DNA from: a virus
Reading direction: 5' to 3' (one strand)
Virus record (IMG/VR): IMGVR_UViG_3300033148_006239
Span: 32,001 to 96,000 of that record
DNA length: 64,000 bases
A program made the position numbers and the translations under genes. Positions within the stretch are counted from its first letter, which is position 1, and each line of letters starts with the position of its first letter. This document shows positions 3,291 to 32,669 of the stretch, in pieces. The notes under the pieces were generated by a model. That model saw only the letters and a list, made by a program, of their open reading frames with translations. It made no database searches and was not told the DNA's origin.

Positions 3291-3317
3291 ATAACATTAA
3301 ATTAATAAATTTAACAT
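3291..3317 (-). promoter_or_regulatory. Candidate phage-sigma promoter ATGTTAAA-N13-TGTTAT (copy 1)
   Basis: Exact bipartite match shared with 18147-18173 and 21750-21776; all are intergenic and on the coding strand. Confidence 0.65.
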
Positions 3318-6300
3318 TATTTTTTTATTAGTCTTGTTTTATAATTATTATCTAATAAAAGAGAATAATTACCATTATATTCATTAACATTAACTCTTGA
3401 AATATAGAATCCATTTTTCTTGAAAATATCATCAAGTGCAGACCATAACGAAGAAAAAATTGTTAAATCATATTGATTACCATTAAACAATTCAATCTTT
3501 ACAAAAGCCATTTGATTTCCACGTTTATCATTTGTTTTTCTAATTTCAATAACTCTATATAAAACAATATATTTATCATCAGTTTCTTCTAATATTATTT
3601 CATCTGTTAAGTCATACTTTTTACTTATTTTATTATACTTATCTTCACCCAAAAACGCAATAAATGGATTACTAAAATTATAACCAAATAATCTACTTTC
3701 AGTCTCAATTAAATTATCTTGACCATAATGTTCAAAGATTTTTAATTTATGTCTTCTTTGCTCTGTTATAATTTTGTTATCAGGTAATCCCTCTTCGTTA
3801 TACTTATTAATATAATAATCAAAAACTTTTATATTTTCTTTTTGTTTTTTAGTTGCTTTACTTTTTCTCATTCCCCATAATAAATAAGCACCATATATCT
3901 CTTTATAAGTATAACCAAAAGAATCAAAAAGCCCTGCTTCGATCATTATTTCAATGATCTTAATAGTAACTCTTCTCCAACTAATTTTACTATCCATATT
4001 AAAAAAATCATTAATTGTATTATAAGGTCTATTTGTATTTAATTCAAAAGCAGCCTTATCACCTATACCTTTTACATTCTCAAAGCCAAATATAATTGAC
4101 TTATCAATAATAGAAAAATTAGAGTGAGATTTTGTTAGATCTGGTTTTGATATTGAAAACTTATTATTATATTTAAGAAACTCATTAATAATTGTTTTAA
4201 AGTCTTCAAATTTAGAATTAATTAAAACCGCACAATAAAATTCTAAAGTCTTATAACACTTTAACCATGCCGATTGAAAAGCTACCATAGCATAACTAAC
4301 AGAATGTGCTCTATTAAATCCATATAAAGAAAACTTTTGCATAAAGTCCCAAATTATTTTAGACTTCTTTTTATCAATATCATGTTCTTCAAAACCTTTA
4401 AAAACAACTTTCTTCATATTATCTAAGTTTTCAAAATGCTTACGATAATCATCAGGTTTTATTTGTTTCATCCTTGCCAAAGAACGTGCATCATATTTAC
4501 CTAATATTTTTCTTAATTTATCTGTTTCCTCAAGAGATAATCCACCTATTACATTGGCTATCTCCATAACTTGCTCTTGGTATATTAAAACACCAAATGT
4601 TTTTTCAAGAACAGGCTTTAATTTTTCATGTGGATATTCGATATCCTTAGGATTATTGTAATTATTTATAAAAGTATCAACAACACCACCATATATTGGG
4701 CCCGGTCTATATAAAGCATTTATTGCAGCAATATCTTCAAATTTATCAGGAAGCATTTGTTGAATTACTTTTCTAATTCCATGTCCTTCAAATTGAAATA
4801 CTGCAACCATAAAATCTTTCCAAAAGATTTTTTTATAAACTTTAATATCATTAATATCAACAATATCAGGATGTATTTTCAAATAATATTTTCTATAAAT
4901 CTTTTTATCACCATTTGAAATTAACTTTAAAACATCATCAATAATTCTTAAAGTCTTTAGTCCTAAAATATCGTATTTGACATGACCTATTGCCGTTAAT
5001 CCTCTTGCATATCCTCCCTCTTGAGGACTTAATTGTAATTGCATTAAATCACCACGGGGTGCGTATGTTGCACAAGTTTCATATATATTTGGATAAACAA
5101 TAATTCCAGACGCATGCTTACCTATATGTTTAATTTTACCTGTTAGCTTCTTCATTGTTATTGCTAATTCTTCATTTTCAGGTTTTTCAATAAACTCTCT
5201 AAACGAATCGCAACATTCAATCGCATCAGCAAAATAAATATTATGTTTATCATCTCTAGTATTTTCTTCTTTTTTAATCCAAACATCAAAAGCAGTTTTA
5301 ACATCTTTAGCAATACTATTTACAAGTCCAATATCTATATTATATATTCTACAAACATCTCTAAAAACACCTTTAAATTGAAATGTTCCATAATTAGATA
5401 CTAAAGCGACTGATGTATTTACAATTTCACCATCTTCATTTTTCTTATTAAAATATTCAAACATAAAATCTTTAACAAAATTATTATCACTGAAATCAAT
5501 ATCAATATCAGGTAATTCATTTCTACCAGGATTTAAAAATCTTTCAAAATATAACCCAAATCTTATTGGATCTATTTGAGTTATTCCCAAGCAATACGAA
5601 ACTAGACACCCTGCCGCACTGCCCCTCCCAACTCCAACAAGTATTCCACGTTTCTTAACTTGCTTAACTAAATCAAAAACAGATAAAAAATAATCATATA
5701 TTTTTTTATCTTTTATGACAATTAATTCATATTCTAATTGTTTTTTATATCTTTCTTCATCATAATCTTTAATCGATTTAGATCTTTTTTCAAGTCCAAT
5801 AAATGATTGTTTCTTTAAAAAATTAAATCTTTCATCTTCATCTTTGTCTTCAAATCCAACAGGAACAATTAATTTATTTGTACAATCATATTCGATATCT
5901 TTAATCTTTTCAAATATTTCAACTGTATTATCACATAATTCATTTAAAACATTATCACTATTATCAGAACCATATTGCTCACTTGAATTAAATACTTCAG
6001 ATCTTGATTTTATATAAAGTTGTTTAGCATCAAATTCCCATAATAATTCAGATGATTTTTTATCTTTATCTGATATATCACCAGTTGTTTTCTTAATACC
6101 TGATTGTAAATACAAAAGATTTCTGTGTGTTATATAATCTTCTTTATCAACATAATGTGAATCAACTGTAATAATTGGTTTTATATCAAATTTTTTAGCA
6201 AACTTTAATAATCTTTTATTAGATTTATTTTGATCAGCTATTTCATTAAATTGAAGTTCTATATAGAAATCATCACCGAATAACTTTTTATAACGTTTAA

Positions 6301-6775
6301 CAAATTTAATTGCATCTTCTTTATTATTGTTCAAACAATGTTGTTGTAATTCACCCGCAATACAAGCAGTTGAAACAATTACATTTCCTACAAGTTCATC
6401 TCTAAATGATTTTATTAATTCCCAATCTATTCTTGGTCTTGAATAAAAATACTTATGTGATTCATAAAGTAATTTAAACAACATTCTTAATCCATCGTAA
6501 TTCTTAGCAAGCATCAATAAATGATTTCTCTTTTCATTTTTAATTCTTGTGTTCTTGTCTTTAGTAACATAAAACTCAATACCATAAATAGGTCTTATAT
6601 CTTTATCTTTACAAAAAGAATGCATTTCAGACCATGCACACATATTACCGTGATCAGTTATAGCTATTCCTTTTTGTTTCAAATCGATAGCTTTTTGTAT
6701 TATTTGATCAGGGCTATTTAATCCATCTCTAAATGAAAAATGCGAATGTGTATGCAAATGAATAAAATCTTTCAT
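3317..6775 (-). CDS. dnaE: DNA polymerase III alpha subunit (family C)
   Basis: PHP motifs HLHTHS..DG, TDHG, DSHY; GRGSAAG; catalytic PDIDIDF; KHASG; FNRAHS; C-terminal OB fold. Confidence 0.98.
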   Translation of the reverse strand: MKDFIHLHTHSHFSFRDGLNSPDQIIQKAIDLKQKGIAITDHGNMCAWSEMHSFCKDKDIRPIYGIEFYVTKDKNTRIKNEKRNHLLMLAKNYDGLRMLFKLLYESHKYFYSRPRIDWELIKSFRDELVGNVIVSTACIAGELQQHCLNNNKEDAIKFVKRYKKLFGDDFYIELQFNEIADQNKSNKRLLKFAKKFDIKPIITVDSHYVDKEDYITHRNLLYLQSGIKKTTGDISDKDKKSSELLWEFDAKQLYIKSRSEVFNSSEQYGSDNSDNVLNELCDNTVEIFEKIKDIEYDCTNKLIVPVGFEDKDEDERFNFLKKQSFIGLEKRSKSIKDYDEERYKKQLEYELIVIKDKKIYDYFLSVFDLVKQVKKRGILVGVGRGSAAGCLVSYCLGITQIDPIRFGLYFERFLNPGRNELPDIDIDFSDNNFVKDFMFEYFNKKNEDGEIVNTSVALVSNYGTFQFKGVFRDVCRIYNIDIGLVNSIAKDVKTAFDVWIKKEENTRDDKHNIYFADAIECCDSFREFIEKPENEELAITMKKLTGKIKHIGKHASGIIVYPNIYETCATYAPRGDLMQLQLSPQEGGYARGLTAIGHVKYDILGLKTLRIIDDVLKLISNGDKKIYRKYYLKIHPDIVDINDIKVYKKIFWKDFMVAVFQFEGHGIRKVIQQMLPDKFEDIAAINALYRPGPIYGGVVDTFINNYNNPKDIEYPHEKLKPVLEKTFGVLIYQEQVMEIANVIGGLSLEETDKLRKILGKYDARSLARMKQIKPDDYRKHFENLDNMKKVVFKGFEEHDIDKKKSKIIWDFMQKFSLYGFNRAHSVSYAMVAFQSAWLKCYKTLEFYCAVLINSKFEDFKTIINEFLKYNNKFSISKPDLTKSHSNFSIIDKSIIFGFENVKGIGDKAAFELNTNRPYNTINDFFNMDSKISWRRVTIKIIEIMIEAGLFDSFGYTYKEIYGAYLLWGMRKSKATKKQKENIKVFDYYINKYNEEGLPDNKIITEQRRHKLKIFEHYGQDNLIETESRLFGYNFSNPFIAFLGEDKYNKISKKYDLTDEIILEETDDKYIVLYRVIEIRKTNDKRGNQMAFVKIELFNGNQYDLTIFSSLWSALDDIFKKNGFYISRVNVNEYNGNYSLLLDNNYKTRLIKK

Positions 6776-6776
6776 A

Positions 6777-7067
6777 TTAATTTAAATCTCTTGTTATAAC
6801 GTCTGCTTTAAACTCGTTTTGACTAATTGTATAATGAATATCAATTACAACACAATTCTTTAATCTATGCTCTTTGATAAATTTTTCATTTAAAAAATAA
6901 TCAAGAGATTTATTTAATTCCCAATTATAATTGGCATGAATTGTAACAATAAATTGTTTCTCTAGTTGATTATCTTTTATTCTAAATAAATTAGTTTTCA
7001 TATTAATTTCTTTCCCAGACACTAGGTCTATTATTCCAAAATCCTGTTTTAATAGGACTATATCCAT
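6777..7067 (-). CDS. Hypothetical protein (true start probably near 7003)
   Basis: Fills the gap between the methyltransferase and dnaE. Confidence 0.55.
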   Translation of the reverse strand: MDIVLLKQDFGIIDLVSGKEINMKTNLFRIKDNQLEKQFIVTIHANYNWELNKSLDYFLNEKFIKEHRLKNCVVIDIHYTISQNEFKADVITRDLN

Positions 7068-7794
7068 AATCTTTCAATATAAAACTAAATAACTTTGATA
7101 AAGATCTCCTTGAATATAATTTTCCTTCATATATTGTTTCATTAAAATGTCCTGTTTGTACAATATTAAATCCATTTGCAACTACAAATATTCTTGGATT
7201 ACATTGTACTATAATAGACTCTAAATGATCGATTGTATTTTCTATATGTTCAAAATATTCACTACAAAAAGCAATGTCACATTCAGATAATTTACTATAA
7301 TTATGTTCTATTTTTATATTGTCATTTTTTCTTGCAACAAATCTAGCTATTTTATATTGCTTTGATTGTTTTAAATTTGTACCAATAATATTTGCCTCTG
7401 AATAAGCTTCAGACAATGCACATGTTGTAAATCCTATACCACATCCAAAGTCTATAACTGTTTCTATATCCTCATAATTTAATGTTGCTAATCTTTTAAC
7501 ATAATTTTTAGAATCAAAAAGCCATCCATATAAAGCTATTGCTAAATAATATGATCCATCATATACTGAATAATCAGGTATTGCTAATTTCAAAGATCGA
7601 TACCAACGATTTATATATTTAAATCTTGACTCAAATGGATCAAAATTATTTCCTTCTTTAATTTCATCTATTGCAAGTTCTTCATTTTTATTAATTTCCT
7701 CTTCTGTAATATCATTAAATAATCCCATTATAATTTTTTTAAAATATTTTTTTGTAATTTTTTGATTTGAATTTAAAAAATTAATATCGTGCAT
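7003..7794 (-). CDS. Class I SAM-dependent methyltransferase
   Basis: VIDFGCGIG motif I; CSEYFEHI post-motif. Confidence 0.85.
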   Translation of the reverse strand: MHDINFLNSNQKITKKYFKKIIMGLFNDITEEEINKNEELAIDEIKEGNNFDPFESRFKYINRWYRSLKLAIPDYSVYDGSYYLAIALYGWLFDSKNYVKRLATLNYEDIETVIDFGCGIGFTTCALSEAYSEANIIGTNLKQSKQYKIARFVARKNDNIKIEHNYSKLSECDIAFCSEYFEHIENTIDHLESIIVQCNPRIFVVANGFNIVQTGHFNETIYEGKLYSRRSLSKLFSFILKDYGYSPIKTGFWNNRPSVWERN

Positions 7795-8808
7795 TTATTC
7801 ATCCATAAATAATGATTTTTCATAATCTGATAATCTATTAAAACTATCTCTATCTGAACTAAAATTGATCCAATCATTTGGGTCATTTATTGGTAATCCT
7901 AATTGATCTTCTAAAGTCTTTTTATCAGTACAGCTTTGATTAAAAGTTGAATAATCTGTACCTGAAGAATGTCTACCGCATGATGAAAATAAACATCCAA
8001 AAGCATTACTTAAATGATCATCTTTTGAATAAGTACATTTTTTTGATCTATCACATCCAGGTCTTAACGTATCTGCAATCAAACTTAATCCTAACTTTTC
8101 GATTTTATATCTAATCAACCAATGTAATCCAACAATAAATTCTTCTTCACAAAATTGCATTCTTCTATTACACTGACCCATCAATGCTAATAAATTTTGT
8201 GTAAAATGATAAGGATGATGATAACTCATAGGTAATACAGATCTAGCTGCTTGCCATGTACCTTGATCTTCTTTAACTATCATTTCATAAATATCTTTCA
8301 TTTGTTTAAAATGTTCGATAATAATATCTCTTAATTGTGCATCTTCTTCAAATAATTCTTTATAATATGTATATAAAATAATTGATGCATCTAATTTATT
8401 ATTGTCTCTACAACCGCTTGACCCAAACCCAGTTCCTATTCTTGCTCTTGCGTGTTGATCAAAACAATGTCGTGGTAAACCTGTAACTTTAAAAGTAAAC
8501 GTAACTGATTCTAAAGCTGTTGGTAATGTATTACCAGTCAAAGCAGATAATACAACAAAATATCTATTCAATGGATCTAATTCATTCCATTTATTAATAT
8601 AATCATCATTACCCCATGTTGCAGTAGCTATTGCAAAAATTGATTTATATGGATTTTCATTATAATCAATTATTTCAACATCAAGTTTTTCACACCCAAA
8701 ATATATATATGTCTCTTTTACAGGTCTTTCAGATGGCAATGTTCCCATTGCTTCTCTTAATTCATTAATTCTTTCATTTGTCATATTTACTCCTTCATAC
8801 TTTCCCAA
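7795..8808 (-). CDS. Divergent ThyX-like (flavin-dependent thymidylate synthase fold) protein
   Basis: ALESVTFTFKVTGLPRHCFDQHARAR...RD and QAARSVLP, plus a Cys-rich C-terminus. Canonical RHR...SxRY appears as RAR...GCRD. Likely start is MTNE (~8784). Confidence 0.85.
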   Translation of the reverse strand: MGKYEGVNMTNERINELREAMGTLPSERPVKETYIYFGCEKLDVEIIDYNENPYKSIFAIATATWGNDDYINKWNELDPLNRYFVVLSALTGNTLPTALESVTFTFKVTGLPRHCFDQHARARIGTGFGSSGCRDNNKLDASIILYTYYKELFEEDAQLRDIIIEHFKQMKDIYEMIVKEDQGTWQAARSVLPMSYHHPYHFTQNLLALMGQCNRRMQFCEEEFIVGLHWLIRYKIEKLGLSLIADTLRPGCDRSKKCTYSKDDHLSNAFGCLFSSCGRHSSGTDYSTFNQSCTDKKTLEDQLGLPINDPNDWINFSSDRDSFNRLSDYEKSLFMDE

Positions 8809-9761
8809 ATTTTATCTATTATATCTGCATAATTTTGATATTCTATAGAGTATTCATCATAAATTCCTTCAAACATTTCTTCTAGATAATCCATATCACA
8901 TATATGATCACCTAAATAATCTCCAGTATCATGTATATTAATACTATTATTCCAACCGTATGTACATTTTATATAATCAACTATATCTTCAAATTTAACA
9001 GGCACACCTTTGGCTAAATTAATACTTTTATGAATATACTTTTTTGTTATTAACAAATTTTTAGTATATTCATATTCAGTAAATGCATATATATCTAATA
9101 TAATTGACAATAACTTTGAAAAATCATCGATATAAAAATAATCTTTATATTTATTATATTCTAAATAGATATCAAGTTTCTCTTTTTTATGAAAACGAAT
9201 ATGTCTTAGTATTAAATTTATCATACTTGAATTATCGTAAGGATAATCACCACATACAAAAACAGGTCTAACATTAAACCAATCAATATCTTTATTTATA
9301 AATAAAATATCTTCAGCTGCTTTTTTAGTTATACCATATAACGAAGGATGATTTTCAAATGGTTTAGCGTTATTGCAAAATCCACCAATAGAAGTATCAA
9401 ATTCAAATGGATCAAATATAGTTGTGCTACTAAAATTGATTAAAGGTAAATCGAACTCTCTACATATTTTAATAATATTCTGTGTCCCTAAAACGTTTGT
9501 TAAAATAGTTTCTTCTTCATTGTTTATACATCTATGTGTTCCTACAACTGCGGCTATATGTATAATAGCATCAGGTTTCCAATCATTAATTGCATTTCTC
9601 ATTTGAGTATAATCTTTAACATTAAAATGAAATCTTTCTGTATCTAATCCGTCATTATAAGTTGGATAAATATCTGGCATAATATCATATTTATGACTTA
9701 ATTGTTTATCTAAGCCACGTGCAATCATTCCATTATGACCTGTTAAAAATAATTTATACAT
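8787..9761 (-). CDS. Extended SDR, NAD-dependent NDP-sugar epimerase/dehydratase/reductase
   Basis: TGHNGMIA Rossmann motif, IIHIAAVVG, TNVLGT, FSST and catalytic YGITK (YxxxK). Confidence 0.9.
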   Translation of the reverse strand: MYKLFLTGHNGMIARGLDKQLSHKYDIMPDIYPTYNDGLDTERFHFNVKDYTQMRNAINDWKPDAIIHIAAVVGTHRCINNEEETILTNVLGTQNIIKICREFDLPLINFSSTTIFDPFEFDTSIGGFCNNAKPFENHPSLYGITKKAAEDILFINKDIDWFNVRPVFVCGDYPYDNSSMINLILRHIRFHKKEKLDIYLEYNKYKDYFYIDDFSKLLSIILDIYAFTEYEYTKNLLITKKYIHKSINLAKGVPVKFEDIVDYIKCTYGWNNSINIHDTGDYLGDHICDMDYLEEMFEGIYDEYSIEYQNYADIIDKIWESMKE

Positions 9762-9771
9762 TTATTTTACC

Positions 9772-10278
9772 TCAATCATCGTCGGGATATGCACCTCTAG
9801 AATACCAAGAATCATCATCAAGATCATTATTGATAACATCATTCATATCATCGCAAATCTCCATAAAATTTTGTAATTTATTAACACAAGCGTCAATATT
9901 ATTTGCCGATGTATTTATTTCAATAAAATTCGCCTTTAGTTTATTGACAATATCAATGAAAATTGTTTGTTGATAAAATAGACTGCGTCTTGAAATAGTA
10001 TGACACTTCATTTCATCAGTAGATTCAATTCTCTCAAGAAAATCATTCGCATTTACTATACATAAAACTATTACAGAATGTTTACAAATATCTTTACTTA
10101 TTTTATATAAAATATCATTATCATGTTCTCTTTTATAAACTTTATTATATACTAATTGTGAAAGAATACTTCTGTCGTGACAAACATATTGATAATTATT
10201 TTGTAATTCAAAATTACGTCTCAATGTTGATTTACCTGACTTATCAATACCTTCAAAGAATATTAATTTACTCATCAA
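9772..10278 (-). CDS. Thymidylate-kinase-like dNMP kinase
   Basis: FFEGIDKSGKST P-loop and DRSILSQLVY motif. Confidence 0.88.
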   Translation of the reverse strand: MMSKLIFFEGIDKSGKSTLRRNFELQNNYQYVCHDRSILSQLVYNKVYKREHDNDILYKISKDICKHSVIVLCIVNANDFLERIESTDEMKCHTISRRSLFYQQTIFIDIVNKLKANFIEINTSANNIDACVNKLQNFMEICDDMNDVINNDLDDDSWYSRGAYPDDD

Positions 10279-10486
10279 TACCTGCTTTTGTTACTGTAAA
10301 ATCTAATTTAATTTTTTCAATTATTTTTTTTGGTTTAATATAAATATCAACATAATTATCATTATAATTATCGTTATCGTTTAAATCAAATTCAAAATCA
10401 TCAATAATATCTTCATCTTTTAAGTCTTGCAAAAGCAATAATATTTTAATTTGAAATATAAAAAAATCAATATTAAATTTACTCAT
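10268..10486 (-). CDS. Small protein resembling the tail-sheath C-terminal segment
   Basis: VDIYIKPKKIIEKIKLDFTVTKAG resembles the C-terminal strand motif of T4-type sheath proteins. Confidence 0.5.
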   Translation of the reverse strand: MSKFNIDFFIFQIKILLLLQDLKDEDIIDDFEFDLNDNDNYNDNYVDIYIKPKKIIEKIKLDFTVTKAGIDE

Positions 10487-11057
10487 TAGTGTATGCCTTA
10501 TAAAGAGTATCTAATATATGTTTATAATCATCTACACTCATTCCACCATAAGATAAAACATAATTAGGATGATTTATTGGAAAAACAATTGCTTCTCTAT
10601 CATTATATTCAAATATAGATTCTTTATATAATTCTGCATCAAAAAATTTAGCAACTTGTTTACCTAAAGGAACGATTACTTTTGGTTTTAAAATCTGTAT
10701 TTCTTTTAATAGAAATCTATTACCACATTTATTAATTAATCTTTCATCAATCTTATTATTTTTTGTACTGCATTTAACAATATTTGTTATTGTACATTCA
10801 TTTAAATAATTGATCATTCTTAAAAATTCTAATCCAAAACCTCCATCAAAAGCAAACGTACCATATATCCCTCTAACATTTGATGGATTCATACCAACAA
10901 ATAAGAAATTATTTCCTATATGTAATCCTTTTAATTTACCAAACCCATATCTTATATCTTCTGTATTAAATTCTTCATCGCATAAATTTTTACATCGTTT
11001 ACATGTGCATAATCCGTAATAAAGTTTGTGAATCTTACTTTTCATATTTACTTTCAT
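10479..11057 (-). CDS. Uracil-DNA glycosylase superfamily protein (family 4-like, Fe-S)
   Basis: CKRCKNLC, FVGMNP, TNIVKC, KPKVIVPLG and HPNY motifs. Confidence 0.88.
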   Translation of the reverse strand: MKVNMKSKIHKLYYGLCTCKRCKNLCDEEFNTEDIRYGFGKLKGLHIGNNFLFVGMNPSNVRGIYGTFAFDGGFGLEFLRMINYLNECTITNIVKCSTKNNKIDERLINKCGNRFLLKEIQILKPKVIVPLGKQVAKFFDAELYKESIFEYNDREAIVFPINHPNYVLSYGGMSVDDYKHILDTLYKAYTNE

Positions 11058-12064
11058 AAATTACTCATTATAGTATCAAAAGTAAAAAATGGAATAATAG
11101 TATCAATCTTTTTAATTCTTTCAATATACATATTGTTATAAGGTGTTATTTTCAAATAAACATCTACAGGCATTGATTTTGCAATCTTAATTGCATTATC
11201 TGCATCGTCTTCGACAACAAAAGATACATTTTTTAAATCTTTAATTATTCTATGCTCTTTCTTTTCATCCCAAAAAATCATATCAATAGGTAAATTATTA
11301 CTTGTTATCCATTTTAAAGTATCAGAATAGATTCTACTATATTTATGATATGGTCGTGCAGTTATTAATACAGTTATATAATCTTTTTTATATAAATATT
11401 GTAAAAATTCCTTTGCTCCAGGAACAAAATCCATTTCGGCTTTAACACCTGATTGTCTATATCTATCTTTTAATATTAATTGTACTTCTAAATCAAGATT
11501 TAAAAAATCATTAAAATCAATTATTTTTTCATTAATAGAAACATTATCTAACATACCATAATTAGACATAATATTCGAATATTCATTAATCCATTTAATA
11601 AAAAAATCAGGCCAATCAGCAATAACTCCATCAATGTCAATAACTGCAATCTTTTTATTTGAATCGATATTGTTTATAAATTTTTCTTGATTATACCTTG
11701 CTTCAACAACAGTTGTTTTATTTAAAAAATTCTTATAAAAATCTTCATCATTAATTCCCCACAAATTACACAACCCAACAAGAAACTTAAATATATCAAT
11801 CAATTCTTCAGAAATATTTGATCTAATTATATCGCCATCAAATTTTCTATGCATTTTAAATGGCATTTCATGTAATAATTCACCTATTTCAGAATAAAGA
11901 TGTAAACAAAATTCCTTAGACCAAAAAACTAACTCTTCTTCAGTTAAATTATTTATATCAAATCCTTTATCTTTAAAAACTTGATTATTAAAGTCAAGTT
12001 GTTTTTCCCAAATTTCTTTTAATTTATTCATTTCCCCACCCATAAGCCATAACGTGATCAACAA
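11054..12064 (-). CDS. MazG/dimeric dUTPase-like dNTP pyrophosphatase fused to a HAD nucleotidase
   Basis: N-domain has SEIGEL...EELIDIFKF (ExxE...ExxD). C-domain has DIDGVIAD, ITAR and VEDD HAD motifs. Probable start MNKLKE at ~12031. Confidence 0.88.
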   Translation of the reverse strand: MLITLWLMGGEMNKLKEIWEKQLDFNNQVFKDKGFDINNLTEEELVFWSKEFCLHLYSEIGELLHEMPFKMHRKFDGDIIRSNISEELIDIFKFLVGLCNLWGINDEDFYKNFLNKTTVVEARYNQEKFINNIDSNKKIAVIDIDGVIADWPDFFIKWINEYSNIMSNYGMLDNVSINEKIIDFNDFLNLDLEVQLILKDRYRQSGVKAEMDFVPGAKEFLQYLYKKDYITVLITARPYHKYSRIYSDTLKWITSNNLPIDMIFWDEKKEHRIIKDLKNVSFVVEDDADNAIKIAKSMPVDVYLKITPYNNMYIERIKKIDTIIPFFTFDTIMSNL

Positions 12065-12989
12065 AATCTTTTAACTTATCACACAATGTGTGAAACTGTA
12101 TAGAATGATCCCATGACGCATATCTACCAAAACATTTTATATCACCAATATGATCTAAACAATGATTCTCTAAAAAATAGCCATACTTTAACGTACCATA
12201 TTGTAATATACCACTAGACATAAAAATCTTTTTAAGTATACAGACATTATCTCGATCAATTGATTCATACGTAATTGTTTTATCTTTATTATCTGTAACT
12301 CTTATAAAAGGAATATCTTTATCAGCATAATATATATAATCATAATCGTTAAACATCAAACCATTTATTTTAACAAAATATTTGCTTTTATATTCATATT
12401 TAAAATAAGGATTTACATCAAATAATTTACAAAAATCAGGAGCAGGAATTGTATTAATAATATATTCATGACTAGTTCTAATTGAATAATTATTATCTAA
12501 ATGAATTGCAACGTGATTGTTATCATAATAGTCAACACGTTCAATTAAACTGTTATAATATGTAGTACCTTGAGACCACAAAAATCTACAAATTGTTTCA
12601 ATAAATTCTTTCTGTGAAAAATCAAAATATTCAAAATTATTACCTCCCGACGCGGTACTATCATAGTGTTTTCCATCTCGTGTAATTCTTGAATACTCTA
12701 ATAAAAATTCTTTTGTTGCATAATCTTTAATTTCATCATTGTAACAGAAACCAATGTTTGTCTTTTTAACATTTTGCTTGATATTAAATTGTCTTAAAAT
12801 CTTTTCTACTTCATCAGAAACATGTAAATATCTCGGACCAAAAGCGTTCTCATATTGACCATATAATTTTCCAATTATAGTTACATTACAATTGAGATAT
12901 TGTTTTAAATAATAAGCCGTTAATAGTGCTGCAGGACCAGCACCAATAATAATTATATCATTCATAATTAATTTCTTATCAATGGGCAT
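12024..12989 (-). CDS. FAD-dependent enzyme, UDP-galactopyranose-mutase-like
   Basis: IIGAGPAAL FAD motif. GPRYLH, NTIP, YYADKDIPFIRVT and FGRYASW correspond to Glf-type GPHIFH, PYTRI and GRLxxY motifs. Confidence 0.75.
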   Translation of the reverse strand: MPIDKKLIMNDIIIIGAGPAALLTAYYLKQYLNCNVTIIGKLYGQYENAFGPRYLHVSDEVEKILRQFNIKQNVKKTNIGFCYNDEIKDYATKEFLLEYSRITRDGKHYDSTASGGNNFEYFDFSQKEFIETICRFLWSQGTTYYNSLIERVDYYDNNHVAIHLDNNYSIRTSHEYIINTIPAPDFCKLFDVNPYFKYEYKSKYFVKINGLMFNDYDYIYYADKDIPFIRVTDNKDKTITYESIDRDNVCILKKIFMSSGILQYGTLKYGYFLENHCLDHIGDIKCFGRYASWDHSIQFHTLCDKLKDFVDHVMAYGWGNE

Positions 12990-13536
12990 AATTAATTTGC
13001 CTCATTACGTTATTAGTTTTTACAAATAAACAAGGTTGTACATCATCATAATCAATAAAATAATTTCTTATACATTTCCTAACGTTTTCAAATTCATTAG
13101 TAATTGATGAAATACATTTACTTTTAATATTTGCAATTTCAGTAGCGCTAAATCCCTTTAAATAAAGTTCAATAATTTCTTTTGCCTTTACTCTATCTAA
13201 ATTATTTAACATTCTTTCAAAATCAATTGTAACATCTGCATCAGGTTCATCATAAGCAATTTGATCTTGATAATTATCTAAATTGGCGTTCTTATATTTA
13301 TAATTTCTATAAGCGTTGTCCATAATTTTAAATGAACTAAAACTCAATGTTTGATTTATAAAACCAGATAAACTACCCTTTTCTTCATCAAAGTTATTGA
13401 TATACTTTAATAATAATATTGATAATTCCTGCTTCGCGTCGTCAAACTCAACTGGAGATTTATGTGAAACTTTATATGCATATTTACATATCAGTCTATC
13501 ATAATCTCTAAATACTTGGTTAATGTCAATAATCAT
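12979..13536 (-). CDS. Phage RNA polymerase sigma factor (sigma70/ECF-like)
   Basis: Region 2 FDDAKQE...FDEEKGSLSGF; region 4 HTH LKGFSATEIA. Confidence 0.85.
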   Translation of the reverse strand: MIIDINQVFRDYDRLICKYAYKVSHKSPVEFDDAKQELSILLLKYINNFDEEKGSLSGFINQTLSFSSFKIMDNAYRNYKYKNANLDNYQDQIAYDEPDADVTIDFERMLNNLDRVKAKEIIELYLKGFSATEIANIKSKCISSITNEFENVRKCIRNYFIDYDDVQPCLFVKTNNVMRQINYAH

Positions 13537-13607: not shown

Positions 13608-14744
13608 TTAAATATCAATACCAGTTTCAAGTTTCACAAATTCAACTTCTGATTTTTTTTCAAGTTTTTTATGATCTCTCTTAATTGAATTAACTAATTT
13701 AATCATTGCTTTACTCTTCTTTAATCCTGCACAAATCATATACCCAGTAATTTTATCGACATTACTAGAATAGAAATAACTAACATACGAATTTGGAGTT
13801 CGAGTCATCACTTCAATTCTTTTAGAAATTAATTCTGCTTTTGTATTCATTGTATGTTTATCACTTCCCTTAGGTAAGACAATTGCCAATATATAATTCG
13901 TTGTTGTATTTATATCAAATGATCCATAATACATTGATTCTGTATTTAATTTACGTATAAACTCATCATCAATACCTTCATCCAATTGAAAATATCTGAA
14001 ATCAACAAACCCAGAATTTTTATTATAAAGTACCCTTTTTAAATCAGACATATCTATATTCGCATTATTACCACTTAAAAAGTCATAATTTGATTTAAAT
14101 GTAAAATCATAAAACATTTTTAAAGGATTAATAATGTGATAATTAATTCTATCATAATGTGTTTTCTTCATTTTAAATCTATCATATAGTAATTGATTAT
14201 CCGCAAGAATAACATTGACATAATCAATATCTTTCAAAAAGATATTTTCAATAAACCAATTAATTAATTTTATTGTATTGTTTTTTCTCTTAATACCTTC
14301 ATTCTTTTTTGGAGTTGAAATAATTACTAATATTTTTTTATTTAATTCAACCAATAGCTCAACAATAACTCTTGTAATTCCATTTCCACTACCCCCACCA
14401 CCTGATGTATAAATAATTATATATTCATCATCATCAACAATTCTTGGACCGCATATTTCTCCATCGACATCTTCATATTTTTCAAATAAAAATTTATTTA
14501 TTTTATCAATCTTATTTCTAGCTATCATTTCACCTTTATCAGGATCATTTCCAGTTCCATCTACACCTAAAAGCATAACATCTTCAATACTAAATAATTT
14601 GATATTATCAACTGCAGTATTAGATACAACAGTTTTTGTATTTTTAAAAAATTTACTATGTTGCTTTGCAAGCATAGTCCCACATTGACCATTACCAAAT
14701 ATTTTATCACTTATGGTTAAATCTAAAAACTGTTCCATTTCCAT
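13608..14744 (-). CDS. Tubulin/FtsZ-family GTPase (TubZ/PhuZ-like)
   Basis: GNGQCG T1 loop, GTGNDPDKG, tubulin signature SGGGGSGNG, PKKNEG, DN and IDMSDLKRVL T7 loop. Confidence 0.9.
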   Translation of the reverse strand: MEMEQFLDLTISDKIFGNGQCGTMLAKQHSKFFKNTKTVVSNTAVDNIKLFSIEDVMLLGVDGTGNDPDKGEMIARNKIDKINKFLFEKYEDVDGEICGPRIVDDDEYIIIYTSGGGGSGNGITRVIVELLVELNKKILVIISTPKKNEGIKRKNNTIKLINWFIENIFLKDIDYVNVILADNQLLYDRFKMKKTHYDRINYHIINPLKMFYDFTFKSNYDFLSGNNANIDMSDLKRVLYNKNSGFVDFRYFQLDEGIDDEFIRKLNTESMYYGSFDINTTTNYILAIVLPKGSDKHTMNTKAELISKRIEVMTRTPNSYVSYFYSSNVDKITGYMICAGLKKSKAMIKLVNSIKRDHKKLEKKSEVEFVKLETGIDI

Positions 14745-30899: not shown

Positions 30900-32669
30900 T
30901 TAACCCTTTACTATATCAACAAATTCTGAATCTAATCCATCTAAATCGAACGAATTTAAAGAATTAAGTACTTGAGTAACTTCTTTAAACTCTGAAATTG
31001 CTTGTTTTGTTTGCTCTTTATCTTCATCTTCTTTTATAAATAATTCAATAAAATTTATTAAAGAAGTTATATTTGCAGGATCTAAACCACCAGCAACTAA
31101 AAAAATTCCTCCAATATAATTAGAATCTCTTTTTTGTTTATTACTAATTCCATTTGTATTTGCGATATCACTAATAAATTTATTTATTCCACCAAGTTGT
31201 GGTTGAATTGTTTTTATAACTAAAAATTCGCCATTAATAGACAATGTTAATTTATCCAATAAAATTAATATTCTATTTCTTATTGAATCAACTACGTTTG
31301 TTACAGTTTCTATTTTTTCTGATAGTGAATTTGAAATTGCATCAAGAAGATTTTCTTTTCTACCTATTTGTTCATATAGACTATCAATAAAAAATTTTAT
31401 TTCATTTTTTAATGTTTCTATTTCAGGAATTAACCATTGTAAAGTTGTTCCAAACCAATCACCATCACCAAAATTTCCAAAAAATCTTTTCTTTAAGAAA
31501 TCGACACCATCAGTTCTTTGTAATGGAACAATTTGGCTTGTTTCATTTGTATTAATTATTTGTGTTGCATCAAAATTACCAAAAGTTGTTCTATCGATAT
31601 GTCTTCCGAGTAAATCAGTAAATACTAATGTTTCAATTAACGATAAAGATTCTCGCAATTTAGCTGCAACTTGTGGAGCTGTATAAAGTTCTATTGCTGC
31701 TGTATATTCATGACCATATAAAATAGGTATATCATCAATACGATTAATATCTAGTTCTTTTTCACCAATATTTTTATATATACCATCTTCGGGTAAATTA
31801 AGATCAACTAATATATCTGTAACTTTATTTGATTCAATATCTCTAGCTTTTATTGATGTAACTTTAATCCAATGTGGAAAACTCAATTTATCCCATTCTA
31901 ATGATAATGAATTTTTATTAAAAATACTTGTAAATCTGAATTTTAAATTCGCATCAATTTCTTTTTGTACTTGTATATTTGAAAATGTTATAAAATTTAT
32001 ATCAAATAATCTCAAAAATTCTTTTAATTGTGCAGTTACTTCATCGATACCTGGTGCCATTGCTAAAATAGCAATTCCACCAACATATTCATTAGAATTA
32101 AAACTAGGAATGTAATCTCTTTCAAATTCATTATCTGTATTAAATGATTCTCTAAATCTGTTCCAAAACGAATCAAATTTTGTAGAAGAATCAATTTCTT
32201 TATTATCGTCTGTCATAGCACGTGTAATTCTACCTGTTTCATCTCTTGAAACACTTATTGTATCTTCTGCTTGAATATTTATATCAATTGGTGATTTATA
32301 CATTATATGCATTCCACCAGAACCACCAATTTTATCAATAGTATTATTTATAATAGTTCTTGAAGTATCAATTAGTTTTTCTGCGGGATCAATTACTTTT
32401 CCACCAATAAATGTTTCTATTTTATTAATTATTTCAACACCAACTCTAGTTGGTTCGTATATTATTTCAATTAATCCTTTTGCTGCGTTAATAACTTCTT
32501 CTAATTCATTTAAAAAGCTCAAATCTGGTGCAATTATCTTTTTCCAATTTTTATCTTGATCTGCCTTTGAATTATTTTTATTATCTTCTAAAAATTTCTC
32601 AGCATTTTCATTTGTATATAGTTCTTGTTTAAAATTGACATGTGTTAAAGTTTCAAATTCTTTAAGCAT
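30900..32669 (-). CDS. Hypothetical baseplate-region protein
   Basis: 589-aa ORF within the baseplate operon; internal repeat YVGGIAILA / YIGGIFLVA. Confidence 0.7.
   Translation of the reverse strand: MLKEFETLTHVNFKQELYTNENAEKFLEDNKNNSKADQDKNWKKIIAPDLSFLNELEEVINAAKGLIEIIYEPTRVGVEIINKIETFIGGKVIDPAEKLIDTSRTIINNTIDKIGGSGGMHIMYKSPIDINIQAEDTISVSRDETGRITRAMTDDNKEIDSSTKFDSFWNRFRESFNTDNEFERDYIPSFNSNEYVGGIAILAMAPGIDEVTAQLKEFLRLFDINFITFSNIQVQKEIDANLKFRFTSIFNKNSLSLEWDKLSFPHWIKVTSIKARDIESNKVTDILVDLNLPEDGIYKNIGEKELDINRIDDIPILYGHEYTAAIELYTAPQVAAKLRESLSLIETLVFTDLLGRHIDRTTFGNFDATQIINTNETSQIVPLQRTDGVDFLKKRFFGNFGDGDWFGTTLQWLIPEIETLKNEIKFFIDSLYEQIGRKENLLDAISNSLSEKIETVTNVVDSIRNRILILLDKLTLSINGEFLVIKTIQPQLGGINKFISDIANTNGISNKQKRDSNYIGGIFLVAGGLDPANITSLINFIELFIKEDEDKEQTKQAISEFKEVTQVLNSLNSFDLDGLDSEFVDIVKG

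Follow-up and report, generated by a model that had tools for sequence, protein, structure and literature searches.

A rewritten ThyX-like protein with a flavoprotein partner in a phage gene module that may supply a modified pyrimidine nucleotide

What does a flavin-dependent thymidylate synthase fold do in a phage when several residues of its signature have been exchanged for other, equally invariant ones? The question is raised by a string of genes in the 64,000-nucleotide stretch of virus DNA that we analyzed, positions 32,001 to 96,000 of IMG/VR record IMGVR_UViG_3300033148_006239 (the window; positions below are those of the window unless marked otherwise). The source record is a complete virus genome of 105,324 bp with direct terminal repeats, about 27% G+C (73% A+T) and nearly all genes on the minus strand; matches to tail sheath, tube and baseplate proteins mark it as a myovirus. 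At the center of the string is a ThyX-like protein accompanied by a second flavoprotein, which we call FLAV. The answer we favor, with our confidence evenly balanced, is that the string encodes a virus-specific nucleotide-pool pathway to a C5-modified pyrimidine deoxynucleotide, most likely made from dUMP, which would replace thymidine wholly or partly and be fed to the phage polymerase DnaE.

The string consists of eleven open reading frames (ORFs) on the minus strand (3317-13536), with ends that overlap or abut. In the order of transcription they are:

12979..13536, minus strand: sigma-70 region 2-like factor, 185 aa (Pfam Sigma70_r2, 2e-5; phrog_351, phrog_1740)
12024..12989, minus strand: FLAV, a 321-aa flavin adenine dinucleotide (FAD) protein of the UDP-galactopyranose mutase (UGM)/PPOX/amine-oxidase fold class (sub-threshold Pfam FAD Rossmann matches)
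11054..12064, minus strand: fusion of an all-alpha NTP pyrophosphatase domain (dUTPase_2/MazG-like) with a phosphatase domain resembling 5'(3')-deoxyribonucleotidases (NT5C-type HAD) (dUTPase_2, 3.5e-8; NT5C, 3e-5)
10479..11057, minus strand: uracil-DNA glycosylase (UDG)-like protein, probably derived from family 4 (Pfam UDG, 7e-13; TIGR00758, 3e-9, below cut-off)
10268..10486, minus strand: 72-aa ORF (no family above threshold; 0 of 74 related loci)
9772..10278, minus strand: thymidylate kinase (TMK)-like dNMP kinase, 168 aa (Thymidylate_kin, 9e-8; TIGR00041, 3e-10, below cut-off; phrog_761)
8787..9761, minus strand: extended short-chain dehydrogenase/reductase (SDR), 324 aa (Epimerase, 3e-21)
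7795..8808, minus strand: ThyX-like protein, 337 aa (Thy1, 4e-12)
7003..7794, minus strand: class I S-adenosylmethionine-dependent methyltransferase, 263 aa (weak Methyltransf_11/12/23/25 matches)
6777..7067, minus strand: 96-aa ORF (no family; 0 of 74 related loci)
3317..6775, minus strand: DnaE-type replicative polymerase, 1,152 aa (NF004226, 3.5e-215)

The original prediction, made from the letters of the DNA, had placed an overlapping operon with these domains between the sigma factor and dnaE, and each of them was confirmed there, on the minus strand. No terminator-like site lies on this strand between 3000 and 15500. Shuffled sequence contains more promoter-like sites (115 +/- 10) than the 92 observed here, and we therefore make no promoter claim.

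The ThyX-like protein is the core enzyme of the module. Its AlphaFold2 model, built with 24 homologues (predicted local distance difference test score, 86.8), matched ThyX structures only in a Foldseek search, the top matches having an E value of 6e-9, TM-scores by target of 0.65 to 0.73 and about 19% identity; the ThyX fold is thus confirmed at the level of a predicted structure. Pfam Thy1 also recognizes the protein, at 46.7 bits against a cut-off of 24.8. The ThyX equivalog model TIGR02170 was not reached (33.7 bits; cut-off, 87.9), the family profile met the solved ThyX structures of the Protein Data Bank (PDB) at an E value of 0.01 at best, and comparison with eight canonical ThyX genes from related viral loci gave an hhalign probability of 50% and 14% identity. 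Within the family, whose members have 320 to 340 residues, conservation is good, and identity to the window's protein runs from 40 to 60%.

The full ThyX signature, RHRx7-8SxR(Y), is not present in the window's protein, where the corresponding segment reads RARIGTGFGSSGCRD. Throughout the family, R-A-R...S-x-G-x-R-D-N replaces RHR...S.RY as part of a longer invariant pattern in the alignment, PRHxFDQxARxRxG..F.S.G.RDN.K.D; the His, the Ser before the Arg and the Tyr have each been swapped for another invariant residue. By a mapping to Thermotoga maritima ThyX that is tentative at this low identity, Q75, R78, R80, R90, R147 and R174 are kept as invariant Q118, R121, R123, R134, R189 and R216. 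These arginines and Q75 are what we take to be the nucleotide-phosphate- and uracil-binding residues. New conserved residues occupy the places of H53 (now N), H79 (A), S88 (G) and Y91 (D), and the R165/H178 region is replaced as well. The canonical G-H-E was placed by hhalign opposite G-N-T of the family, and the column of His53, presumably the folate-stacking residue judging from the folate complexes of T. maritima ThyX, holds N, K or Q. Where Tyr91 would contact the deoxyribose, as we assume it does in T. maritima ThyX, stands the pair D135/N136. At its C terminus the protein is extended by some 90 residues, among them four invariant cysteines (C252, C258, C277 and C293).

In one large clade (about 30 loci, L034-L073), the ThyX-like gene is found as two tandem, overlapping partial paralogues, such as L063:9974-10789 and L063:10755-11498. 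ORF A keeps S.G.RDN and has lost RAR; in ORF B, RDN is gone, while RAR and the Cys-rich tail remain. Complementary halves of this kind are expected only if both motif sets are functional. In ThyX tetramers, different subunits contribute motifs, and the arrangement suggests that the two paralogues form an obligate hetero-oligomer. The apparently interrupted gene at L051 proved to be another such pair; an Rfam scan found no intron there. A search for fused long forms of the protein yielded an intein-bearing form only, the 715-aa homologue P0127. At L031:9728-11095 (G011), a 455-aa ThyX-like ORF within an open frame of 496 aa has an N-terminal extension of about 120 residues, and FLAV there is in two pieces in one 346-aa frame.

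We found related loci by scanning IMG/VR with a degenerate pattern taken from the ThyX-like alignment and confirmed them by tblastn; a single-protein query had found none. The family is present at 74 IMG/VR loci, on contigs that range from 4 kb to the 424 kb of jumbo phages. Among 185,579 prokaryote species (one genome each), we found one locus, on a 9.5-kb contig of an archaeal metagenome-assembled genome, in a scan made with a single conserved peptide pattern that could miss divergent members. A collection of 5.8 billion sequences contains homologues in 288 cluster representatives at 90% identity (E <= 0.001), and 72 clusters matched at E <= 1e-30 among 1.84 billion representatives. The family thus appears to be essentially virus-restricted. 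The 50,697 deposited phage records held no match, either by blastn with the region or by tblastn with the ThyX-like protein, a second family member or FLAV, and we found no functional study of the family in the searchable literature.

If the genes of the string work together, they should also travel together, and co-occurrence in other genomes had been named beforehand as a test. We counted as partners the genes co-directional with the ThyX-like gene and within 10 kb of it, using tblastn of the window's proteins and all-against-all clustering of ORFs, at 75 loci including the window:

FLAV: 57 of 75 loci
NTPase-HAD fusion: 59 of 75 loci
kinase/UDG/DnaE, one cluster, variously fused: 64 of 75 loci
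SDR: 36 of 75 loci
dCMP deaminase: 26 of 75 loci
glycosyltransferase of family GT4: 16 of 75 loci

The gene set recurs among the 74 related loci, and the proposal passed this test. These counts are lower bounds, because contig ends cut many loci short. Its co-directional recurrence in dozens of viral contigs that are unrelated to one another puts the arrangement well outside what chance would give.

Could the ThyX-like protein be the ordinary thymidylate synthase of these phages? A canonical ThyX of 199 to 234 aa with the full RHRxxSxxQxSxRY motif lies within 10 kb of the ThyX-like gene at 9 loci, and at L003, one of the two closest relatives of the window, it directly adjoins it. Over the whole of the 30 records that carry the ThyX-like gene, canonical ThyX was found in 9 and a true ThyA (1.6e-80) in one more, with at least five gains or losses of a canonical synthase on the ThyX-like tree. 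Because a canonical enzyme coexists with it in 10 of the 30 records, the ThyX-like protein does not look like the housekeeping thymidylate synthase. From its sequence and its company, it is probably not an ordinary thymidylate synthase at all, and the comparative evidence (the rewritten signature and the coexistence) bears out the altered ThyX that had been proposed. Some loci hold a further relative: short proteins of the ThyA superfamily (214 to 248 aa; PF00303, 1e-7 to 1e-11, covering about 77-213 of the 266 profile positions) adjoin the ThyX-like or the FLAV gene at L023:9315-9971, L074:9249-9995 and L030:2708-3352. None of these three loci has the SDR, and two also have a canonical ThyX, which gives each of those two three genes of the thymidylate synthase type.

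The most constant companion of the ThyX-like gene is FLAV. Its profile was found in 30 of 30 records that carry the ThyX-like gene, among them every one of the 12 with a completeness of at least 90%, and the Atlas clusters closest to it consist almost entirely of viral "hypothetical proteins." FLAV thus appears to be an obligatory, virus-specific partner of the ThyX-like gene. Pfam gives only sub-threshold matches to FAD Rossmann families and no match to GLF (PF03275). The family profile does find UGM chains of the eukaryote type weakly, in the mid-region (E, 0.006 to 0.013), and in the HMMER alignment the invariant R230 falls on the YR motif of Trypanosoma cruzi UGM; the helical domain is reduced, and PPO scores nearly as high as UGM. 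The family has the motifs GxGxxG, GPR, STIP and GRYAQW. The label "UGM-like" is therefore apt for the fold, while a UGM function would be putative. FLAV is present in every genome with the module, the SDR and GT4 are not, and the FLAV gene lies directly upstream of the NTPase-HAD gene; these facts tie FLAV to the ThyX-like enzyme and nucleotide chemistry more than to the sugar genes.

The other core genes encode enzymes that handle nucleotides. In the NTPase-HAD fusion, dUTPase_2 matches the N terminus with 34.4 bits (cut-off, 22.9) and NT5C matches the C terminus at the borderline, with 24.4 bits (cut-off, 24.8). D90 and K93 are invariant in the NTPase domain, where the remaining acidic positions always hold E or D. 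The HAD domain has a DIDGV motif with invariant D143, D145 and G146, a motif II of the form T/S-x-R-P, an acidic motif IV and the cap motif K..YR..G.K. Translation of this gene probably starts at an internal ATG a few codons downstream. The fusion is not simply the phage dUTPase, because a trimeric dUTPase (PF00692) sits directly beside it at 9 loci. Furthermore, a phosphatase of the deoxyribonucleotidase type would waste dUMP if its fusion partner were a dUTPase supplying a thymidylate synthase; the fusion makes sense in an enzyme that clears canonical dNTPs, and so it counts against ordinary dTMP synthesis. PBS2 and phages with 5-hydroxymethyluracil (hmU) induce activities that degrade dTMP or dTTP.

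The UDG-like protein scores 49.3 bits with Pfam UDG (cut-off, 24.3); its nearest NCBIfam model is that of family 4, TIGR00758, which was not reached (36.7; cut-off, 125.3). Three of the cysteines for a 4Fe-4S cluster, C19, C22 and C96, are invariant and C111 is nearly so, and a cluster would be bound there. P58, N92 and H163, the His of motif B (HPNY), are invariant too. Motif A is GMNPS in the window and G[MLQ]NPS in the family, with an Asn like that of the MUG/SMUG enzymes and not the GEAPG of family 4. Judging from these motifs, a derivation from family 4, with an Fe-S site, is probable. The UDG-like domain has a gene to itself in the window; 12 loci have it fused to the N terminus of DnaE, and at least one (L038) has it fused to the kinase. 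The kinase has the P-loop GIDKSGKST and a DRS motif; TIGR00041 gives 40 against a cut-off of 83.25. Its relatives, found at 19 loci by single-query tblastn, have 140 to 160 aa. DnaE is encoded next to the module at 52 of 74 loci and is the presumed consumer of the pathway product.

How could these enzymes act together? We infer all substrates, the sequence of reactions and what they finally yield from folds, conserved catalytic motifs, co-occurrence and coexistence with canonical enzymes. The MazG/dUTPase_2 domain would hydrolyze a pyrimidine dNTP, be it dUTP, dTTP or both, to its monophosphate, and the fused NT5C-type phosphatase would drain the unwanted canonical monophosphate. The ThyX-like enzyme and FLAV would then modify C5 of the pyrimidine monophosphate by flavin chemistry; the candidates are hydroxymethylation, an exocyclic methylene trapped by another nucleophile, and O2-dependent hydroxylation. 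The small TMK-like kinase would phosphorylate the product, and host NDP kinase would complete the triphosphate. DnaE could incorporate it, with the UDG-like protein removing misincorporated dU. The SDR, the methyltransferase and, in relatives, GT4 may be lineage-specific tailoring enzymes.

A pyrophosphatase, a dNMP modifier of the thymidylate synthase type, a dNMP kinase and the phage's own polymerase thus stand in one gene string, conserved across 74 loci. This is the architecture of the base-replacement pathway that was originally predicted, and to that extent the proposal holds. We also count in its favor the rewritten invariant signature, the tandem split paralogues, the dCMP deaminase near the module, the fusion of UDG to the polymerase, the published precedents described below and the restriction to viruses. 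The proposed tailoring by the methyltransferase is not supported by the comparison: tblastn found no counterpart at any of the 74 loci, and the gene falls outside the conserved module. Its profile is of the small-molecule type, and in the Atlas it lies closest to clusters of viral methyltransferases. The 72-aa and 96-aa ORFs, equally without counterparts, were rejected as pathway members along with it; any role of the three in the pathway would therefore be lineage-specific.

The SDR, also assigned to the pathway by the original prediction, occupies a middle position. About 20 of 30 records gave a strong match; since roughly one in three genomes with the module lacks it, it is accessory or dispensable. 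Its catalytic set is intact (motifs TGxxGxxA and YGITK; T7, G8, G11, Y142 and K146 invariant, T112/T113 conserved). Epimerase matches with 76.4 bits, and its best PDB relatives in a profile search are dTDP-glucose 4,6-dehydratase (6bi4, 5.7e-26) and RmlD, the dTDP-4-dehydrorhamnose reductase (3sc6, 1.7e-25).

The main rival to a modified base is ordinary thymidylate supply with uracil exclusion, carried out by very divergent enzymes. Here the ThyX-like protein would be a genuine dTMP synthase of several components, with FLAV and/or the SDR as its flavin/NAD(P)H reductase system; the fusion would act as dUTPase, the kinase would make dTDP, and the UDG would remove uracil. We take this possibility seriously and think it rather unlikely. 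The points against a modified nucleotide are given here together with those for ordinary supply. A dUTPase, a thymidylate synthase, a thymidylate kinase and a UDG make up the textbook set for dTTP supply and uracil exclusion, and these are the four core activities of the string. A search of the whole genome of the window found no other thymidylate synthase and no dCMP deaminase, and a genome of 73% A+T needs much dTTP, so plain dTMP supply would make sense. Thy1 is above its cut-off, the fold is that of ThyX, and the arginines for the dUMP phosphate are kept. An actinophage relative, described below, has retained a larger part of the ThyX signature (RQR...SxRF), and its annotation is that of a thymidylate synthase. 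The genomes were assembled from ordinary short-read metagenomes, which disfavors a very bulky, polymerase-blocking modification. Finally, the role of FLAV is left without an explanation by the modified-nucleotide pathway.

The SDR seemed to offer further support for ordinary supply. It is absent from 7 of the 10 records with a canonical thymidylate synthase and from 3 of the 20 without one (naive Fisher p, 0.005), as if the ThyX-like protein plus the SDR could equal a thymidylate synthase. We rejected the two as functional substitutes, since with relatedness allowed for the pattern comes down to 5 phylogenetically independent pairs (sign test p >= 0.25); it is a lead and not a finding. More generally, ordinary supply has to accommodate a canonical ThyX or ThyA in a third of the records, sometimes adjacent, and the trimeric dUTPase at 9 loci, a redundancy unusual in phages. 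It also has to accommodate the TIGR02170 score far below cut-off, the replacement of H53, H79, S88 and Y91 by other invariant residues, and a fused deoxyribonucleotidase that would waste dUMP.

Next comes a two-stage hypermodification, which we consider unlikely. The ThyX-like protein would make a 5-hydroxymethyl or 5-hydroxy dNMP, FLAV (as a mutase) and the SDR would make an unusual NDP-sugar donor, and an unrecognized glycosyltransferase would act after replication. The best solved relatives of the SDR are indeed dTDP-sugar enzymes, a GT4 lies near the ThyX-like gene in 16 relatives, and Rhizobium phage RL38J1 offers an analogue, with a thymidylate synthase homologue, a TMK-like kinase, a UGM and glycosyltransferases (PMC13326640). 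In the window's own genome, however, Pfam on 87 further ORFs gave no glycosyltransferase among the matches listed (25 of 35 families in one set), six-frame searches of the whole genome with PF00534 and PF00535 (GT1/GT4 and GT2) found none, and no sugar-1-phosphate nucleotidyltransferase was seen in the complete genome. Phage DNA glycosyltransferases may be too divergent for recognition, and the absence is therefore weak evidence. The prediction that the pathway has no glycosyltransferase thus agrees with the window's genome and fails for the module as a whole, given the relatives with GT4. FLAV also fits poorly as the mutase: it is universal in genomes with the module where the SDR and GT4 are not, it lacks a GLF match, its helical domain is reduced, and PPO scores nearly equal.

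The chemistry originally singled out, a sugar put on the base by the ThyX fold itself without a glycosyltransferase, is unlikely by our analysis. In its broader form, the ThyX-like protein and FLAV would act as a two-flavoenzyme system that installs a C-C or another non-methyl substituent at C5 of dUMP and takes it from a donor that is not methylenetetrahydrofolate, such as a sugar-derived flavin-N5 iminium, and no glycosyltransferase would be needed; we would call this a long shot. Longer still is the specific version in which a sugar-derived group is attached to C5 of the dNMP, for example through a flavin-N5 sugar iminium in the style of UGM, to leave a polyhydroxyalkyl chain like those of SP-15 and YerA41. 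UGM works through a flavin-N5 iminium adduct. ThyX, for its part, works through a flavin-N5 methylene iminium (PMC8989533). The two proteins co-occur without exception, the folate-stacking His53 is lost, the genome has no recognized glycosyltransferase, and SP-15-like phages carry C5-linked dihydroxypentyl chains of unknown origin. Nevertheless, the analogy is purely mechanistic, the SDR needed for the sugar is dispensable, and neither ThyX-like protein nor FLAV had a tblastn match in the deposited phages, a collection that should include SP-15 and YerA41. We also know of no case of a flavin adduct passed between two proteins.

It is very improbable that the module acts on uridines of RNA or tRNA, or on a small molecule of the cofactor or nucleoside type: the neofunctionalized ThyX paralogue PolB does act on UMP in antibiotic synthesis (PMC5954106), and D135/N136 in place of Tyr91 could change sugar specificity, but the ThyX-like family is virus-restricted, and the module keeps the company of DnaE, UDG, dCMP deaminase, ribonucleotide reductase, a kinase of the dNMP type and a phosphatase of the deoxyribonucleotidase type, by tight linkage and by fusion.

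Several neighboring genes deserve mention. The sigma factor gene is the upstream flank of the module and overlaps the FLAV gene by 11 nt; tblastn found counterparts at 0 of 74 related loci, and we treat it as context only. Just upstream of it lies a gene for a 378-aa tubulin/FtsZ-like protein (13608-14744, minus strand; TIGR00065, 2e-7; Pfam Tubulin, 1.7e-9), which, judging from these matches, could be a phage cytoskeleton protein of the PhuZ/TubZ type in a genome of just 105 kb. Outside the window, the genome encodes a class II (B12-dependent) ribonucleotide reductase of 1,499 aa with an intein-splicing domain (G000:C1:20715-25214, minus strand, equal to L077:715-5214). Near its right end is a GmrSD_C-type nuclease domain (3.6e-8; G000:C1:97412-97693, minus strand), and the early block of the plus strand has a PF05014 protein like nucleoside 2-deoxyribosyltransferase/dNMP N-hydrolase (2e-8; G000:C1:7856-8149, plus strand), both outside the window. 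Two proteins resembling the restriction-alleviation protein Lar are encoded among the ORFs of 24-64 kb of the window plus the right genome end. These genes may have a part in telling modified from unmodified DNA or may affect the nucleotide pools. In many related phages (for instance at L071:11498-11791 and L062:2371-3996), the module has neighbors that are absent from the window's own genome region: GroES (24 loci), GroEL (22), RecA (12) and a PD-(D/E)XK nuclease (15). Intein-bearing ribonucleotide reductase genes and GIY-YIG homing endonucleases also occur near the module in related loci.

To our knowledge, the phage pathways characterized to date that produce a replacement pyrimidine as a nucleotide all use a ThyA fold. 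If the modified-nucleotide pathway is real, it would be the first to rest on ThyX, the flavin-dependent fold, and would include a second, obligatory flavoprotein; a new base would be relevant to phage escape from restriction and CRISPR, to biases in virome sequencing and to the search for new nucleotide-modifying enzymes. Should the direct two-flavoenzyme chemistry turn out to be true, a previously unknown DNA base would exist in a large, mostly uncultured group of phages. Even a plain thymidylate synthase would be an unusually divergent, multicomponent ThyX system.

The closest parallels in organization are T4, with 5-hydroxymethylcytosine, and SPO1, phi-e and SP8, with hmU. Like the module, they combine a dNTP pyrophosphatase, a dNMP modifier of the thymidylate synthase type, a dedicated dNMP kinase and their own polymerase, and many relatives of the window add a dCMP deaminase. 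Unlike theirs, the modifier here has the ThyX and not the ThyA fold, the UGM/PPOX-like flavoprotein has no counterpart there, the pyrophosphatase is fused to a phosphatase of the deoxyribonucleotidase type, and the polymerase is DnaE. In phages whose genomes are T-modified (SPO1, SP-15 and YerA41), a UDG fused to the replicative polymerase is a hallmark, and the same phages encode a thymidylate synthase homologue and a ligase as well as a deaminase and a dUTP pyrophosphatase (PMC13697223). At 12 of our loci, a UDG domain with conserved catalytic motifs likewise precedes the polymerase, and the window's genome encodes an ATP-dependent ligase. In contrast to those UDG-PolA phages, the polymerase belongs to the C family, the UDG of the window is a separate gene, and motif A departs from GEAPG. 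The 5-hydroxy-dCMP synthases of RB69, DLP3 and RL38J1 are members of the thymidylate synthase superfamily that use flavin, and RL38J1 also has a TMK-like kinase and a UGM (PMC13326640). There, too, a member of the superfamily has been retooled with flavin for new C5 chemistry on a dNMP; the fold is that of ThyA, however, and the glycosyltransferases of those pathways are absent from the window's genome. Outside phages, PolB of polyoxin biosynthesis in Streptomyces is a ThyX paralogue that sits beside a housekeeping ThyX and has acquired a new substrate or role (PMC5954106). It is set apart by its description: a cellular enzyme, still a C5 methylase, with no known Cys-rich extension or flavoprotein partner.

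The comparison of most practical use is with cultured actinophages, to which the HAD domain led by way of Gordonia phages of cluster DV; the link was obtained through this domain and profile comparison only. In Gordonia phage Ranch, an oxidoreductase (gp69) is encoded directly upstream of an NT5C-type phosphatase (gp70), followed by a methyltransferase (gp73), a FabG-like SDR (gp75), DnaE (gp80), MazG (gp81) and a 351-aa "ThyX-like thymidylate synthase" (gp84). The protein families (phams) of this set are co-distributed across clusters D, DG, DV and EF, according to a genome announcement (PMC11385102); we found only genome announcements, and no functional study, in the literature on this version. 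By hhalign, gp84 matches the ThyX-like family far better than canonical ThyX genes do (97.7%; E, 1.6e-12; 256 columns, including the Cys-bearing extension), and gp70 matches the HAD domain (99.5%; E, 3e-23). Similarity of gp69 to FLAV covers only the N-terminal 51 residues (43% probability), and the methyltransferases of the window and the actinophages show no significant similarity (E, 0.04). The cast and the neighborhood are thus the same, down to the oxidoreductase upstream of the NT5C-type phosphatase, the DnaE and the MazG. The differences are that gp84 keeps RQR...SxRF, MazG has a gene of its own, the reductase belongs to the classical and not the extended SDRs, and no UDG or TMK was seen in the stretch of the Ranch genome that we read. 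Taken together, these similarities suggest that Gordonia and Mycobacterium phages of clusters D, DV and EF hold a distant version of the module, and since some of these phages grow easily, on Mycobacterium smegmatis among other hosts, the module can be tested in cultured relatives.

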